DNA from: Acinetobacter phage Aristophanes
Length of the DNA stretch: 43,505 bases
Direction: 5' to 3' (one strand)
Sequence record: MT783706.1
The notes beneath the pieces were generated by a model. That model was given only the letters and a program-made list of their open reading frames with translations. It made no database searches and had not been told where the DNA came from. Positions 1 through 43,505 of the stretch are shown here, piece by piece (position 1 is the stretch's first letter; every line of letters starts with the position of its first letter). The position numbers were made by a program, and so were the translations under genes.

Positions 1-184
1 ATCCTTCAGGGTATTCCTTCAGGAGTTCTTCAGGAGTTCTTCAGGAGTTCTTCAGGAGTTCTTCAGGAGTTCTTCAGGAGTTCTTCAGGAGTTCTTCAGG
101 AGTTCTTCAGGAGTTCTTCAGGAGTTCTTCAGGAGTTCTTCAGGAGTTCTTCAGGAGTTCTTCAGGAGTTCTTCAGGAGTTCTT
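1..184. repeat. Left copy of the direct terminal repeat (DTR) of a linear phage genome
   Basis: Positions 1-184 are identical to 43322-43505: 'atccttcagggtattcc' followed by tandem 'ttcaggagttc' units. The right copy is truncated by the window end, so the true DTR may be longer. Confidence 0.85.
18..182. repeat. 15 perfect tandem copies of an 11-bp unit (ttcaggagttc) inside the DTR; mirrored at 43339-43503
   Basis: Direct reading: 15 x 11 = 165 bp of exact tandem repeats. The unit contains AGGAG and its length matches the DNA helical repeat. Confidence 0.9.
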
Positions 185-535
185 GAGCCTTCGGCTCAGG
201 TTCTCCAGTGTTTCTCCAGTCCTATCTTCTGATATTCATAGTATCATACTCTTTCAGGTTGTCAAGCATCTTTGTATTTATTTTCTTAGTTTTATTCTTA
301 GGTTCTATCTTAGCTGGTTCGCTTGCTTCTTTTGCTTCTTTACTTCTTATCTTACTTTTTACTTCTTCTTACTTCTTCTTTTACTTCTTACTTCCTTGCT
401 TACTTCTTTTCGCCTTCCCTTCCTTCCTTCCTAGCTAGCAAGTTCTATCTATTCTATCTATTCTATCGAATCTTTATTCCCTATAGATTCTCTTCGTTCC
501 TTTCTTTTCTTTTCTTTTTTAATACGCATGATTCT
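185..535 (+). repeat. About 350-bp polypyrimidine (C/T-rich) tract on the + strand with degenerate short repeats (tacttctt, ttctatc, ccttcc); non-coding
   Basis: Strong strand asymmetry read directly. The ORF-track entries 183-434, 208-438 and 323-538 translate to low-complexity L/F/S-rich artefacts. Confidence 0.8.
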
Positions 536-21658: not shown

Positions 21659-23203
21659 ATGTCCAAAGAAACACTAGAGTCTCTGTACCGAAAGTACACC
21701 GATGATACGTTGAAACAAAAGTTAGAGTACTATGCACTTTGGACTATCCCTTCGGTGTTCCCAAAAGATAATACTCAAGTACCTAACGGGAACTCTGTAA
21801 TTGAACATGACTACCAAAGCGTAGGTGCTATGCTAGTGAATCGACTAGCTACTAAATTAGCAGGGTCGTTATTCCCAGCTAATGCTTCGTTCTTCCGTAT
21901 CGAACCCAATGAAACCTTAAAAGAATTACTCGACAGAGATGGTGTTAAATCTTTAGTGGAACTAGAGAACACTGCCTGTCGTAGATTACTGTACAACGCA
22001 TCGTATGCGCAGCTAGTACAAGCACTACGTTTACTGATCATTACAGGTGATGTACTCATTAAGCGCTTTGAGAACAAGGTGCGAGTGTTCTCACTGAAGA
22101 ACTACGTAGTACGGCGTAACAATGTAGGTGAAGTACAGGATATTGTTATCCGTGAATGTATCAACTACTCAGAGTTACCTGATTATATCCGAAACGGTAT
22201 TCAGGATAAACGTCAGCCTGAAGATAAACTGATCCTGTACACACGGGTACAAAAGATCACACAGTTCGTAGGTGACATTGCAGTATCTAAATGGGTAGAG
22301 ACTCAGGAAGTAGAAGGTCGTCCTGTGAACTACGAAGCAACGTACACAACTAACCTATGCCCGTACATCCCTATTACTTGGAATTACGTGAACGGTGATA
22401 TGTACGGACGTGGTTACGTAGAGGAATACGCAGGTGACTTCGCTAAACTCTCCGAGCTATCTCAAGCTCTTACTGAATACGAGCTTAATAGCTGTATTGT
22501 TCTTAATGTGTATAACCCTGCTGGGAATTTTGATGTTGATCGTGCTGTCAGTAGTATTAGCGGTGATTGGGTCACAGGTAATAAAGACGCTGTGCAAGCG
22601 TATGAAGTTGGTGACTACAACAAGATTCAGACGTTAGTAGATAACCTACAATCTATCTCTCAGAGATTAAGTATAGCGTTCATGAGTACAAGTAACCAAC
22701 GTGAAGGTGAACGTGTTACAGCTACAGAGGTTATGCAGAATGCTACTGAAGCTGAGCAAGTCCTCGGTGGTGTGTACTCACAACTCTCCCAGAACATGCA
22801 CATGCCTTTAGCTTATTTGCTACTGCATGAAGTTCAACCTGAAGTTATCAATGCTGTTGAGCGAGGTGAGTTCAAATTAGATATTCTTACAGGGTTACAG
22901 GCTTTATCTCGTAGCTCAGAGAATCAGTCTTTACTTGTAGCAGCATCAGAGATTAACGCTATCGTACCGATTATGGTGCAGTTATCTAAACGCTTTAACC
23001 CTGATAAACTCATTGATAGTATCCTACGGGCTAACGGTGTGAACGTAGATGATTACACGTACACTGAAGAAGAAATGAAGGCTATGGCTGCCCAAGAGGA
23101 TCAGCAGGCTCAGCAATTAGCTATGCAGCAGCAAGCCTTACAACAAGGTGCTGGGCAAGAACAAGCTGTCCAAGCAGTTCAGCAATCACAAGGAATTATT
23201 TAA
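21659..23203 (+). CDS. Portal (head-tail connector) protein
   Basis: 514 aa, immediately upstream of the scaffold and major capsid genes, with T7 gp8-like size and position and a strong AGGAGGGA RBS. Confidence 0.7.
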   Translation: MSKETLESLYRKYTDDTLKQKLEYYALWTIPSVFPKDNTQVPNGNSVIEHDYQSVGAMLVNRLATKLAGSLFPANASFFRIEPNETLKELLDRDGVKSLVELENTACRRLLYNASYAQLVQALRLLIITGDVLIKRFENKVRVFSLKNYVVRRNNVGEVQDIVIRECINYSELPDYIRNGIQDKRQPEDKLILYTRVQKITQFVGDIAVSKWVETQEVEGRPVNYEATYTTNLCPYIPITWNYVNGDMYGRGYVEEYAGDFAKLSELSQALTEYELNSCIVLNVYNPAGNFDVDRAVSSISGDWVTGNKDAVQAYEVGDYNKIQTLVDNLQSISQRLSIAFMSTSNQREGERVTATEVMQNATEAEQVLGGVYSQLSQNMHMPLAYLLLHEVQPEVINAVERGEFKLDILTGLQALSRSSENQSLLVAASEINAIVPIMVQLSKRFNPDKLIDSILRANGVNVDDYTYTEEEMKAMAAQEDQQAQQLAMQQQALQQGAGQEQAVQAVQQSQGII

Positions 23204-24039
23204 TGTCGAATTTAGAAGTCTCAGGTCAAGTACCTAATATCCCACAACAACAACAACCACCACAGGCACAACAACCTGCATTCGATCAAGGAGTACAGCC
23301 GTACCAACAACCGCAGCAGTTCCAGTACCAAGCTCCACAGATTCAACAACCTGTGCAGCAACCTGTACAACAGCCTGTACAACAACCTGTACAACCGCAA
23401 GGACAAGCTCCTGAGGTTAAGCAGCCACAAGAGCCTGTACCTAATTACGGTGGGGATGATCCTCTATCCGTAGGGGTAAAGATTTTTACACATAGTGCTG
23501 GTATTGATGAGGCTGCGTTCTATGAGGCACTTACACCTGCTTTACAGTACGGTGATCCGAATTTAATTAACTTACAAGCCTTAACACAGGATTTGACTCC
23601 AGAGCAGCAAGCACAGGCTAAAGCTCTAGCGCAGTCTATGTACCGACAGGCTCAGCAAGTTAAACAACAAACTATCCAAACCGCTTACCAGAAAGCAGGT
23701 GGTGAGCAGCAATGGCGACAAGCTATTGATGCGTTTAATGCCAAAGCCCCGCAAGCATTTAAAGCTGCTGCGAAGGCAATGGAAGAGTCGGGACAGATTA
23801 ATGAAGCTGTAGACTTTATCTTAGATATGGCTCGACAGTACGGCTTCGTTGGAAGTTCTCAAGGGCAACCTTTACAAGGTAGCTTCGGTAGTCAAGCAGT
23901 TCGAGGGTTATCACAAGATGAATACCGTACTGAGTTAGCTACTTTGGTTAAGGAGGTTGGTGCTACTAACGTAGCATCACACCCTAAGTTCAAACAACTA
24001 TCTGATGCTCGTGCCTTAGGTATGCAGCAAGGTTTATAA
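23203..24039 (+). CDS. Scaffolding protein (Q/P-rich with PVQQ repeats)
   Basis: Position between portal and capsid genes. Low-complexity 'PVQQPVQQPVQQPVQP'. Confidence 0.6.
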   Translation: MSNLEVSGQVPNIPQQQQPPQAQQPAFDQGVQPYQQPQQFQYQAPQIQQPVQQPVQQPVQQPVQPQGQAPEVKQPQEPVPNYGGDDPLSVGVKIFTHSAGIDEAAFYEALTPALQYGDPNLINLQALTQDLTPEQQAQAKALAQSMYRQAQQVKQQTIQTAYQKAGGEQQWRQAIDAFNAKAPQAFKAAAKAMEESGQINEAVDFILDMARQYGFVGSSQGQPLQGSFGSQAVRGLSQDEYRTELATLVKEVGATNVASHPKFKQLSDARALGMQQGL

Positions 24040-40080: not shown

Positions 40081-40636
40081 AGCTAAACGCTTAGGTGTTG
40101 AAGTTCCAGCTCTACGTGCTATCTTAGAGAAAGAGAGTTCTGGTTCAGGCTTTAATGCTGACGGTACACCTAAGATTTTGTATGAACGTCATATTATGTA
40201 CCGCCGTTTAGTACATAACAAAGGGCAACGAGTTGCTGATGTGTATGCCTTAAACCATCCTACACTGGTTAGTCCTAGAGGGTACGGAGCTGGTGGTTAC
40301 GGCAAGTACAGTGAACAACCTAAGAAGTTAGAGGCTGCTGCTAAGATTGATCGTACAAGTGCCCTAGAGAGTTGTTCTTGGGGTATTGCTCAGATCATGG
40401 GCTACCACTGGAAATTATGTGGTTTCAGCTCTATACAGCAATTTGTGAACGCTATGTACAAGTCGGAAGATTCACAGTTCGAAGTCTTTGTTAAGTTCCT
40501 AGAAGGTGCTGGTATTGTACCTTACCTGAAGAAGTTAGATTGGGCTGGTGTAGCTCTACGTTACAACGGTAGCAACTACAAACAGAACAACTACGATAAA
40601 GATTTAGCGAAGTACTACAAGCAATTCAAGGAGTAA
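40049..40636 (+). CDS. Endolysin, putative N-acetylmuramidase family
   Basis: 'LRAILEKESSGSGFNADGTPKILYERHIMYRRL' resembles the phage muramidase family motif (..ESxGxGF..RPKILFERHIF). The ATG at 40049 has a GAGG RBS and overlaps the holin end by 32 nt; the longer track ORF starts at 39986. Confidence 0.55.
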   Translation: MAVSLQKIQSEAKRLGVEVPALRAILEKESSGSGFNADGTPKILYERHIMYRRLVHNKGQRVADVYALNHPTLVSPRGYGAGGYGKYSEQPKKLEAAAKIDRTSALESCSWGIAQIMGYHWKLCGFSSIQQFVNAMYKSEDSQFEVFVKFLEGAGIVPYLKKLDWAGVALRYNGSNYKQNNYDKDLAKYYKQFKE

Positions 40637-40638
40637 CT

Positions 40639-40941
40639 ATGACTAAGAAAACAGGGGCTACACAGTCCCGCCTAGCTTATCTTCATGAACTCTTAGTTGA
40701 GCAGATTATTGCAGACTTCGAGTTCCACAAGGAGGAGAATATCCCTATGAGTGCTACTGATAAACAAGTAGCTATTACGTTACTACGTAATGAAGGGATT
40801 ACAGCTACTCCTGATAATGAGGATATTCAACGTCTTAAAGATGTAGCTACCCGTATTAAGGACGAGGCTAAGAAAGACGTAGCTATGGGTATTATAACAG
40901 AAGTGCAAGAAGCACATGAATTAACTGCGTTTCTAAATTAG
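40639..40941 (+). CDS. Terminase small subunit (T7 gp18-like)
   Basis: 100 aa, immediately upstream of the large terminase gene. Confidence 0.55.
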   Translation: MTKKTGATQSRLAYLHELLVEQIIADFEFHKEENIPMSATDKQVAITLLRNEGITATPDNEDIQRLKDVATRIKDEAKKDVAMGIITEVQEAHELTAFLN

Positions 40942-40949
40942 GATATTAT

Positions 40950-42902
40950 ATGTTATCAGACACAGTTATTAGTCGGTACAAGATGCTACACCAAGCATGT
41001 CAGAAGTGGAATCATCAACCTGAACTCATACCGCTTGAGGAGAGGGAACTACTAGCTACTATCTGTGCTGGTGCTTTCAGGGAGTTCCGAGACTTCGCTG
41101 AAGTGGGTATGCAGTACTTAGGCTTCAAGTTATCTAGTATTCAATCAGACATTGCTGTGTTCATGCAGTACGGTCAGAACAAACGTATGGTGCAGGCACA
41201 ACGTGGGCAGGCTAAGAGTACCTTAGCAGCGTTGTACTGCATCTGGTTACTTATACATAAACCAAGTACACGAGTACTTATTGTATCAGGTGGTGGTGAT
41301 CAAGCAGATGCTATTAGTATTCTAGTAGTTCGTATTATTATGAACTGGAGTATCTTAGCGTGGTTACGTCCTGATACTACTAGAGGTGACAGGGATAGTA
41401 CAAAGAACTTCGATGTACATGGTTCATTGAAGGGTATTGATAAATCAGCTAGTGTAAGCTCAGTAGGTATCACAGCGAACCTACAAGGTAAACGTGCTGA
41501 CTTCATCCTCGCCGATGATATAGAAACGCAGAAGAACTCTATGACTCAACCTATGCGTGAGCAGTTGCTGTTACTAACTAAAGAGTTCGCAGCTATCTGT
41601 ATCACAGGTGAGATTATGTACTTAGGTACACCTCAGACTAAAGATTCTGTGTATCGAGTACTACCTCAACGTGGTTACGATGTGCGTATCTGGACTGGAC
41701 GTTACCCTACAGAAGAAGAACTACAACGCTATGGTGCTGGTACACAAGTAGCACCTACGATCATGCAGAAACTCTTAGAGAATCCAGACCTACAGACTGG
41801 TGGTGGTATCACAGGTAAACGTGGTCAACCTACAGACCCTGATCATATCTCAGAGGAGATTCTTCAAGAGAAAGAGTTAGAATACGGTGATGAAGGCTTT
41901 GCCTTGCAGTACATGCTCGATACAACGCTCTCAGACGCTCTTAGAACGAAGATTAAGCTCAGTGATATGATAGTACTAGGGGTAGGCTCAGAGAGTGCTC
42001 CTGAGAGCGTACAGTGGTCCTGTGAGCCTACTAAGCAGTTCAAAGACCTGAACCCTGCTATTACATCGTTCAGGATGTACTATGGTGCAGGCGTATCTGA
42101 GAACTACGTTAAGTACGAACACAAGGTGATGTGTGTAGACCCATCAGGTGATGGTGGTGATGAGTTAGCTTACGCTGCTGGAGGAGCTACAAATAGTTAT
42201 ATTTATTTACTATCGGTAGGTGGCTTCAGAGGTGGTTTAACAGAGCAGAACATTAACTTGATTCTACAGAAGATGATTACTCTTGGTATTAAAGACCTCC
42301 AGATCGAGAAGAACATGGGTCATGGTGCTGTTACAGCGTTGTTCCTAGCACAGATAGATAAACTACGTCTGTGGTGCGCTATGGACTCGCAGGAGGAGTC
42401 TTTTAAGGAGTTCTGTACTCAGGTACAGCTAACGCCGTTGGAACTCTCTACGAGGCTCTCAGGCATTGGTGTGACGGATTATCATGTACTCGGACAGAAA
42501 GAGAAGCGTATTATTGATACGATCTCCCCAGTGACTCGTAGGCATAAGCTAGTGGTTAGCACAGAGGCTATTGCAGAGGATTGGGAGATGTGTATGAAGC
42601 ATCCCCCTGATAGACGAGTGTTCTACAGTGCGTTCTATCAGTTAGGTAACATCACTTACGATAGGCAGTCTCTAGTTAAGGATGACCGAGCAGACGCTGT
42701 ACAAGCTCTTGTAGAGCGATTACAGGGGTATTTAGCTAAGGATGAGGCTAAGGTAGCAGTAGAGCGTCAAGAGGCTGCTATGAAGGAATGGTTAGCGAAT
42801 CCGATGGGGTACACTGATAGTCAGTACCGTAGAGAGGCTAGGGGTAGACCTAGAACAACAGGTTCAAGTTTAAATAGGAGAGGTTTCGGTGGTAGAAGAT
42901 AA
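40950..42902 (+). CDS. Terminase large subunit (T7 gp19-like)
   Basis: 650 aa with 'ADFILADDIETQ' (Walker B-like). It is the last large gene before the right end. Confidence 0.8.
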   Translation: MLSDTVISRYKMLHQACQKWNHQPELIPLEERELLATICAGAFREFRDFAEVGMQYLGFKLSSIQSDIAVFMQYGQNKRMVQAQRGQAKSTLAALYCIWLLIHKPSTRVLIVSGGGDQADAISILVVRIIMNWSILAWLRPDTTRGDRDSTKNFDVHGSLKGIDKSASVSSVGITANLQGKRADFILADDIETQKNSMTQPMREQLLLLTKEFAAICITGEIMYLGTPQTKDSVYRVLPQRGYDVRIWTGRYPTEEELQRYGAGTQVAPTIMQKLLENPDLQTGGGITGKRGQPTDPDHISEEILQEKELEYGDEGFALQYMLDTTLSDALRTKIKLSDMIVLGVGSESAPESVQWSCEPTKQFKDLNPAITSFRMYYGAGVSENYVKYEHKVMCVDPSGDGGDELAYAAGGATNSYIYLLSVGGFRGGLTEQNINLILQKMITLGIKDLQIEKNMGHGAVTALFLAQIDKLRLWCAMDSQEESFKEFCTQVQLTPLELSTRLSGIGVTDYHVLGQKEKRIIDTISPVTRRHKLVVSTEAIAEDWEMCMKHPPDRRVFYSAFYQLGNITYDRQSLVKDDRADAVQALVERLQGYLAKDEAKVAVERQEAAMKEWLANPMGYTDSQYRREARGRPRTTGSSLNRRGFGGRR

Positions 42903-43113
42903 AGCAGTTAAGCTCAAAGAGAAGATCAAGGGAGTAGACCTTGATGTAGTAGAGAACGATCTACGTATCGTTATTGATACAGTAGAGACTTTGAATAAGG
43001 ATAACACCAGTAGTAAAGCAGATAACATTCAACGTGGTGTTAATGATGCTCGGAAGGTACTAGGTATCTTTAGTGCTATTCGGAGTATCTTCAGAGTGTT
43101 TAAGAAGAAGTAG
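42889..43113 (+). CDS. Hypothetical protein (74 aa, GTG start, basic amphipathic C-terminus)
   Basis: ORF overlapping the terminase gene end, in a T7 gp19.5-like position. Confidence 0.35.
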   Translation: MVEDKAVKLKEKIKGVDLDVVENDLRIVIDTVETLNKDNTSSKADNIQRGVNDARKVLGIFSAIRSIFRVFKKK

Positions 43114-43321
43114 ATACGGAGATGTAGTGTGGAACTAGGTTTATTATTTGTGATTGTACTAGGTATTATTCTATCATTTAGTTAGGTGTGTGTGTGGCTT
43201 AGTGTCCAGATGGGAGTACTAAGTCACTTCTAATTTTTGGTAGAAATTTACGAGAGGGTATCCCCACCCTGAGCACCGCAGAGTTCCCCCATAGGGGCTA
43301 CTACAAGCACCCTGCTGAGGT

Positions 43322-43505
43322 ATCCTTCAGGGTATTCCTTCAGGAGTTCTTCAGGAGTTCTTCAGGAGTTCTTCAGGAGTTCTTCAGGAGTTCTTCAGGA
43401 GTTCTTCAGGAGTTCTTCAGGAGTTCTTCAGGAGTTCTTCAGGAGTTCTTCAGGAGTTCTTCAGGAGTTCTTCAGGAGTTCTTCAGGAGTTCTTCAGGAG
43501 TTCTT
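43322..43505. repeat. Right copy of the direct terminal repeat (truncated by the window end)
   Basis: Exact repeat of positions 1-184. Confidence 0.85.

Follow-up and report, generated by a model that had tools for sequence, protein, structure and literature searches.

A perfect 11-bp tandem array in the duplicated ends of a phiKMV-like podophage genome: probable neutral expansion within a longer terminal repeat

What is a perfect array of short repeats doing at both ends of a podophage genome, and do the ends of the sequence record coincide with those of the packaged DNA? The window, that is, the whole stretch of 43,505 nt that was analysed, begins and ends with the same direct repeat, as an earlier note on this DNA had stated. 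Positions 1–184 equal 43322–43505 exactly, and the longest prefix that is also a suffix measures 184 nt. The 17-nt leader (ATCCTTCAGGGTATTCC) and the 15 exact TTCAGGAGTTC units described in that note are confirmed both by the letters themselves and by Tandem Repeats Finder, which reports one array per end (17–184 and 43338–43505; period 11, 15.3 copies, 100% matches, score 336). The features are:

1–184, plus strand: left copy of the terminal duplication, with the leader at 1–17, 15 perfect TTCAGGAGTTC units at 18–182 and TT at 183–184
43322–43505, plus strand: right copy of the terminal duplication, identical to 1–184
43319–43343, plus strand: two degenerate copies of the unit, GGTATCCTTCAG and GGTATTCCTTCAG, at the 5′ edge of the array, making up the leader

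No rotation of TTCAGGAGTTC was found outside the two arrays on either strand of the whole genome. The array and the identity of the ends are far beyond chance. Degenerate copies are confined to the 5′ edge of the array, where GGTATCCTTCAG and GGTATTCCTTCAG are older copies of the unit. A pattern of three units had no match in IMG/VR, and literature searches on a 184-bp repeat or on tandem repeats in Autographiviridae terminal repeats turned up neither the phage nor such an array. A coding reading of the array was rejected: its plus strand has no stops, yet the units of relatives are 10, 11 or 12 nt long, and no gene enters the array. Sequence alone is insufficient to establish either the recorded 15 copies or the record ends as physical ends.

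The genome and its packaging genes

The genome is that of a new phiKMV-like podophage of the Autographiviridae with T7-type packaging, because of its ORF layout, its homology, the families of its small (TerS) and large (TerL) terminase subunits and the lack of a near-identical genome in the phage collection searched. All long ORFs lie on the plus strand in a phiKMV-like gene order, and the nearest named relatives are the Acinetobacter phages of Daemvirus, Friunavirus and Pettyvirus. The DNA polymerase, RNA polymerase, portal and terminase regions share 70–75% nucleotide identity with Acinetobacter Autographiviridae. Both polymerase regions match Friunavirus genes, and the TerL protein is 65–67% identical to those of Daemvirus and Friunavirus. 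Exact-protein look-ups found no identical TerL or major capsid protein on record elsewhere, and a TerL scan of the GTDB genomes found no relative. The terminase genes are:

40639–40941, plus strand: TerS (phrog_891; T7/phiKMV type)
40950–42902, plus strand: TerL (phrog_38/17672; T7/phiKMV type)

The window thus holds what accompanies a T7-type repeat, namely a T7-like TerS and TerL, a single-subunit RNA polymerase, a one-strand gene order and an identical direct repeat at both record ends. With both terminase subunits present, the earlier placing of the array in the terminal-repeat region of a T7-like phage stands. The last ORF before the junction (42889–43113, 74 aa) has been kept in all relatives and directly adjoins the packaging signals; it has no PHROG family match. 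Elsewhere in the genome, a 12-nt in-frame tandem repeat, CAACAACCTGTA, occurs in about 4.3 copies at 23344–23406 within ORF 23203–24039, in the scaffolding-protein position, and would encode repeated Gln-Gln-Pro-Val.

The concatemer junction in the window and its relatives

Relatives from IMG/VR were ranked by TerL identity (L001, 96%; L004, 92%; L005, 82%; L003, 81%; L002, 80%). The ENA metagenome contig OGVH01005659.1 (L016) and Acinetobacter phage Petty (KF669656; L017) were also compared. The array occupies the variable spacer of a T7-type concatemer junction, with a conserved left-end box on one side of it and a conserved stem-loop on the other. Read from the right end of the record into its left end, and with a slash for a boundary, the elements around the array are:

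43252–43297, plus strand: conserved left-terminal module, GAGAGGGTA / TCCCCACCCTGAGCACCGCAGA GTTCCCCCATAGGGG, identical or nearly so in L001, L004, L016 and Petty
43317–43325, plus strand: the unique sequence GAGGTATCC, which resembles the conserved end motif GAGGGTATCC 61 nt upstream
176–206, plus strand: stem-loop GGAG..CTTGAGCC-TTC-GGCTCAGG..CTCC, directly after the array, its outer 5′ arm being the last array unit
221–231, plus strand: CCTATCTTCTG, which resembles the concatemer-junction motif CCCTATCTGTT of T7, T3 and gh-1
238–265, minus strand: leftward sigma-70-like promoter (TTGACA, 16 nt, TG-n-TACTAT with an extended −10) pointing at the array
283–520, plus strand: CT-rich non-coding region with short imperfect repeats (e.g., TTACTTCTT), a positional match to the T7 left-end short repeats
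316–330, plus strand: GGTTCGC/TTGCTTCT, predicted right boundary of the true repeat at 322/323, with TTGCTTCT at 323–330

The left-terminal module occurs solely at the right end of the record, with its box at 43283–43297. The stem-loop has a predicted free energy of −8.4 kcal/mol as DNA (z −4.1) and −20.4 kcal/mol as RNA (z −5.1), and compensatory changes were seen across seven relatives (e.g., GAGCC/GGCTC vs. GAGTC/GACTC, the slash here separating the two arms). The last unit, AGGAGTTCTT, which adjoins and partly forms the stem-loop, has been kept in four relatives and is the only conserved piece of the array. In the motif at 221–231, CCTATC is kept in L001 and L004 and reads CCTATT in L016; this CCTATCT sequence is a putative concatemer-junction element. 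The TTGACA of the promoter is kept in L001, L004, L016 and Petty. This promoter is, by position, the counterpart of the leftward A0 found in T7 and T3; A0 is annotated in T7 and falls within the terminal repeat in T3. The predicted transcript of the window promoter would carry 15 CUCCU motifs resembling anti-Shine-Dalgarno sequences. The repeats of the CT-rich region are conserved in kind among the relatives.

Five contigs run straight through the junction of right end and left end. At the array site, directly before the stem-loop, they carry:

L001: CTTAGGAGTT in 2.3 copies (10-bp unit)
L004: CTTCAGGAGTT TTTGAGGAGTT CTT, 2.6 copies
L016: CTTAGGATATTT CTTAGGAGTT CTT, one perfect and one degenerate unit, about 2 copies
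L002: an unrelated 11-mer, TAGAGTACAGT, in 3.8 copies
L005: one copy of the L002-type unit

The box lies 348 nt from the leftward promoter in the window vs. 193–221 nt in L001, L016 and L004, a difference of 13–14 units. Because the junction-spanning relatives carry 1–2.6 copies or an unrelated 11-mer, and because these distances differ, the array appears to have arisen by expansion, in this lineage, of a motif already present once or twice. The recent expansion that had been proposed from the perfect identity of the units is borne out, as relatives at about 83–86% overall nucleotide identity (L001, L004 and L016) hold just 1–2.6 copies at that site. Perfect head-to-tail units, in 15.3 copies here vs. 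2.3, 2.6 and about 2 in these three, are what a variable-number tandem repeat presents.

A pattern spanning the border of array and stem-loop matched only L001 and L004 in IMG/VR and the one ENA contig, and had no match in the GTDB genomes. The box pattern added only Petty in IMG/VR. Acibel007 and Friunavirus have no such array. Two side observations concern the contigs themselves. The last ~80 nt of the shown strand of L016 (locus 1–80) are an Illumina adapter (AGATCGGAAGAGCACACGTCTGAACTCCAGTCAC...) followed by poly-A, which is untrimmed contamination. In L004 (10572–11348) and L005 (139–927), an insertion of ~780 nt interrupts TerL at the same point (window 41520/41521) where the window has none; that of L004 holds a free-standing 177-aa ORF, and the insertion resembles a mobile intron or an inserted homing-endonuclease gene.

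Predicted physical ends

The box lies within the repeat in nine of nine reference phages (T7, T3, SP6, phiKMV, LKA1, gh-1, Syn5, APK2, and Aci08), starting 23–27 nt from a left end that has been annotated or mapped. The annotated repeat of Petty also holds the box. Friunavirus ends have been checked by Sanger run-off sequencing (PMC8092837; PMC12960631). The right boundaries fall into two classes, one just 5′ of ATCTGTT (T7, T3, SP6, Syn5, and gh-1) and the other just 5′ of (C)TTGCCTCT (phiKMV, LKA1, APK2, and Aci08). A right boundary 25–28 nt after CTTGAG was dropped when the wider comparison gave these two clearer motifs.

By these rules, the physical left end is predicted at base 43261 (TCCCCACC...), 61 nt upstream of the repeat in the record, with a sequence comparable to TCCCGAC of phiKMV and TCCCACT of LKA1. 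On the right, GGTTCGC/TTGCTTCT is comparable to GGTTCGGTAGCT/TGCCTCT of APK2. With both rules applied to the window, the true repeat is probably ~384 bp long, running from 43261 to 43505 and from 185 to 322/323. The predicted length falls within the range of 381–417 bp reported for Friunavirus repeats (PMC8092837). The right-end rule predicts 309 bp for Petty vs. 308/309 bp annotated, and the end rules give 242–300 bp for L001, L004, L002, L005 and Acibel007. The Petty repeat as annotated (1–308 and 40431–40739) has the predicted length and lies ~20–24 nt upstream of the end signals; the coordinates in that record may be offset.

The earlier note had taken the terminal repeat to consist of the leader and the array. 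The conserved end signals speak against this, placing the left end at 43261 and the right boundary near 323. The box (TTCCCCC(A/G)TAGGG), which elsewhere stands 23–27 nt inside the repeat, lies 25–39 nt upstream of the recorded repeat, and none is found at the left end of the record; this argues that the record boundaries are wrong, not that the phage falls outside the family. On the right, the recorded repeat ends at CTT/GAGCC instead of at ATCTGTT or TTGCCTCT, and both TTGCTTCT and CCTATCT lie beyond it. Boundaries of the record's style would give repeats of just ~27–40 bp in L001 and L016. For this reason the 184-bp repeat is most likely nested in the true one, of which it lacks 61 nt at the left and ~139 nt at the right. 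The ends of the record are probably not the physical ends.

The junction may be set beside those of known phages. Like the window, T7 and T3 (Studiervirinae) have a left end followed ~22 nt later by the TTCCCCCATAGGGG box, short repeats, a CC-TTC-GG stem-loop, a CCTATCT-type motif and a leftward A0 promoter. T7 starts with TCTCACAG, 14 nt, GTTCCCCCATAGGGGGT and dispersed ACCTAAAG motifs, and then has a TCAACC-TTC-GGTTGA stem-loop, an order equal to that of the window. Unlike the window, T7 has three dispersed ACCTAAAG motifs and no perfect tandem array in its repeat, which ends at ATCTGTT, whereas the right boundary predicted here is of the phiKMV/Friunavirus type, TTGC(C/T)TCT. The earlier remark that the T7 repeat has no such array is true in the strict sense, since T7 bases 1–160 hold no tandem array. 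The repeats of Friunavirus, Pettyvirus and phiKMV (308–417 bp) share with the window the left-end context GGGT./TC(T)CCCAC, a box at position 24, the right-boundary motif, the gene order and the terminase, and the predicted 384 bp is in their range. However, they hold just 2–3 imperfect copies of 11–15-bp units vs. 15 perfect copies here.

Arrays near the ends of such genomes include 13-bp units in T7 (5.6 and 4.5 copies, just outside the repeat), 12-bp units in T3 (4.1 copies, inside the repeat), 11-bp units in Petty (5.6 copies), and both 12-bp (2.6 copies) and 11-bp units (2.9 copies) inside the repeat of APK2. In ten reference repeats, the number of imperfect copies never exceeds about four. 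The T7 left-end short repeats, a name that is said to go back to Dunn and Studier in 1983, resemble the array in that motifs with no established function recur at 11–13 bp near the genome end. They differ in being imperfect (81–82% matches), in having 4.5–5.6 copies and in lying outside the repeat. Short imperfect arrays with an 11–13-bp period are usual at such ends, and the 15 perfect copies are an outlier in degree, not in kind.

Alternative explanations and the origin of the array

The record could be right, the physical repeat being exactly 184 bp and nearly all array, with terminase cuts moved to GAGGT/ATCC and CTT/GAGCC. The first letters of the record, ATCC, directly follow GAGGT, a mimic of the conserved cut context GAGGGT/ATCC, and the left end of the record thereby follows the unique GAGGTATCC as a mimic of GAGGGTATCC 61 nt upstream. 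The record ends exactly at the border of array and stem-loop, where the stem-loop starts. Genuine cutting at new sites would account for both coincidences, the length lies inside the range of T7-like repeats (160–414 bp), and 184 is no standard assembler k-mer length. The explanation is nonetheless rather improbable: the box is inside the repeat in all nine reference phages, yet here, with full conservation of both the box and the context upstream, it would fall outside. In addition, the right-boundary motif TTGCTTCT is conserved at 323–330, and the same kind of boundary would leave L001 or L016 with the very short repeats mentioned above. An assembly artefact, by which the array size or the end duplication is false, for example if a circular or collapsed assembly had been opened where a tandem repeat was unresolved, is unlikely but has to be reckoned with. 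The right end of the contig stops at the exact point at which array and exit sequence part, a typical place for an assembly graph to break; the recorded repeat is nested in the predicted one, and the 168-nt perfect array exceeds common short-read lengths. Truncated or trimmed repeat ends and artefactual repeats near terminal repeats have been documented in assemblies of T7-like phages (PMC10438801). Against an artefact, the presence of the motif at this site in relatives shows that the motif as such is real, and all 15 units are error-free. The 17 non-array bases at the left end are not a product of simple k-mer loops, and 184 fits no usual k. By our reasoning, a simple k-mer overlap (127 or 141) was set aside because the overlap is 184 bp and includes these 17 bases.

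Readings in which the array has a function have also been weighed. In the lambda cosB R sites and SPP1 pacL/pacR, repeated short motifs stand beside the terminase cut site, and by analogy the array might be a multi-site DNA platform for TerS or another end-binding protein. The array lies in the packaging-signal region, its unit resembles the conserved cut-context sequence (GGGTATCC vs. GGAGTTC), and its tandem spacing is near one helical turn. The unit may be functional, given that AGGAGTTCTT beside the stem-loop is conserved in four relatives. Unlike the cosB and pac repeats, however, the array has neither a copy number nor a period that is conserved among relatives, which hold 1–2.6 copies at periods of 10–12 bp. 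L002 and L005 have an unrelated unit or none, and Acibel007 and Friunavirus have no such array. The earlier argument that the units line up on one helical face is weak: with a period of 11 bp and a turn of 10.5 bp, each unit is rotated by ~17 degrees relative to the one before, which adds up to ~240 degrees from one end of the array to the other. Because of this drift and the 10–12-bp periods of relatives, strict helical phasing is not conserved, and a platform has only a slim chance of being correct. A role at the RNA level is highly improbable. Rightward read-through would yield RNA whose 15 AGGAG motifs, described in the earlier note as Shine-Dalgarno-like or CsrA-like, could serve as a sponge for ribosomes or CsrA, or a leftward A0-like RNA would carry 15 CUCCU motifs. 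Each unit does contain AGGAG, a conserved leftward promoter is aimed into the array, and no structure is predicted for the minus-strand RNA, which would hence be accessible. But in the plus-strand RNA, a long predicted hairpin (−48 kcal/mol, z −4.6) pairs GGAG with CUUC, so that the GGA motifs of a CsrB-like or Shine-Dalgarno sponge would be sequestered in stems. An Rfam scan gave no family match at gathering thresholds, the scan for a dedicated promoter or terminator of a sponge transcript flanking the array found none, and high copy number is not conserved, the relatives managing with 1–2 copies; the sponge is thus unsupported.

The explanation that we favour, with a probability of about 60%, is that the array is a slippage-type neutral expansion within a T7-type repeat, the real repeat being ~384 bp and the recorded 184 bp a minimum. 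To the observed sequence facts, junction homology, copy numbers of relatives and end rules of the reference phages it adds three things that we infer: slippage as the mechanism, the neutrality of the array and the true ends as predicted. The duplicated ends would be part of the direct terminal repeat of a phiKMV-like podophage. A variable spacer in this repeat would be flanked by the TCCCCACC...GTTCCCCCATAGGGG box on one side and the CTTGAGCC-TTC-GGCTCAGG stem-loop on the other. The short motif CTT(C)AGGAGTT, which fills the spacer once or twice in the nearest relatives, would have expanded here to 15 perfect and two degenerate copies, with slippage during replication or recombination out of register as the most likely cause. 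When single-stranded, neither DNA strand of the array is structured; hairpin-driven expansion was rejected on this ground, and the lack of structure fits plain slippage or out-of-register recombination. Packaging would remake both terminal repeats from the single junction copy in the concatemer, and the two ends would always be identical because both are regenerated from that copy. The array would then be a variable-number tandem repeat that lengthens the redundancy, with the last unit alone joining the stem-loop, and the record ends would reflect assembly or curation breaking at the array rather than terminase cuts. Slippage minisatellites likewise have perfect head-to-tail units, degenerate copies at one edge and a copy number that varies at a fixed locus. 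In contrast to ordinary minisatellites, the array lies inside a phage terminal redundancy and is recopied at each packaging event.

Whether the repeat is 184 or 384 bp long, many annealing registers would be possible because its redundancy is dominated by a homogeneous 11-bp array. The array might therefore form a telomere-like, self-adjusting end that anneals in ~15 registers and shifts its copy number from generation to generation, possibly under selection, which might tune the repeat length or favour many copies of a binding site that goes back to the conserved motif at the cut site. We give such an end a small chance; like the binding platform, it is possible but unsupported. Under neutral expansion, where neutrality is assumed, the array most likely has no sequence-specific job and just lengthens the terminal redundancy.

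The conserved end signals, i.e., the box that follows the left end after ~22 nt and, at the right boundary, either TTGCCTCT or ATCTGTT, offer a predictor of true ends from sequence only for phiKMV-like and Acinetobacter-type podophages. Here they mark the recorded 184-bp repeat as one that is probably incomplete. If real, the array provides a natural marker of length within a T7-type terminal repeat, and its copy number over plaques or passages would reveal the fidelity of repeat duplication and the frequency of out-of-register recombination.
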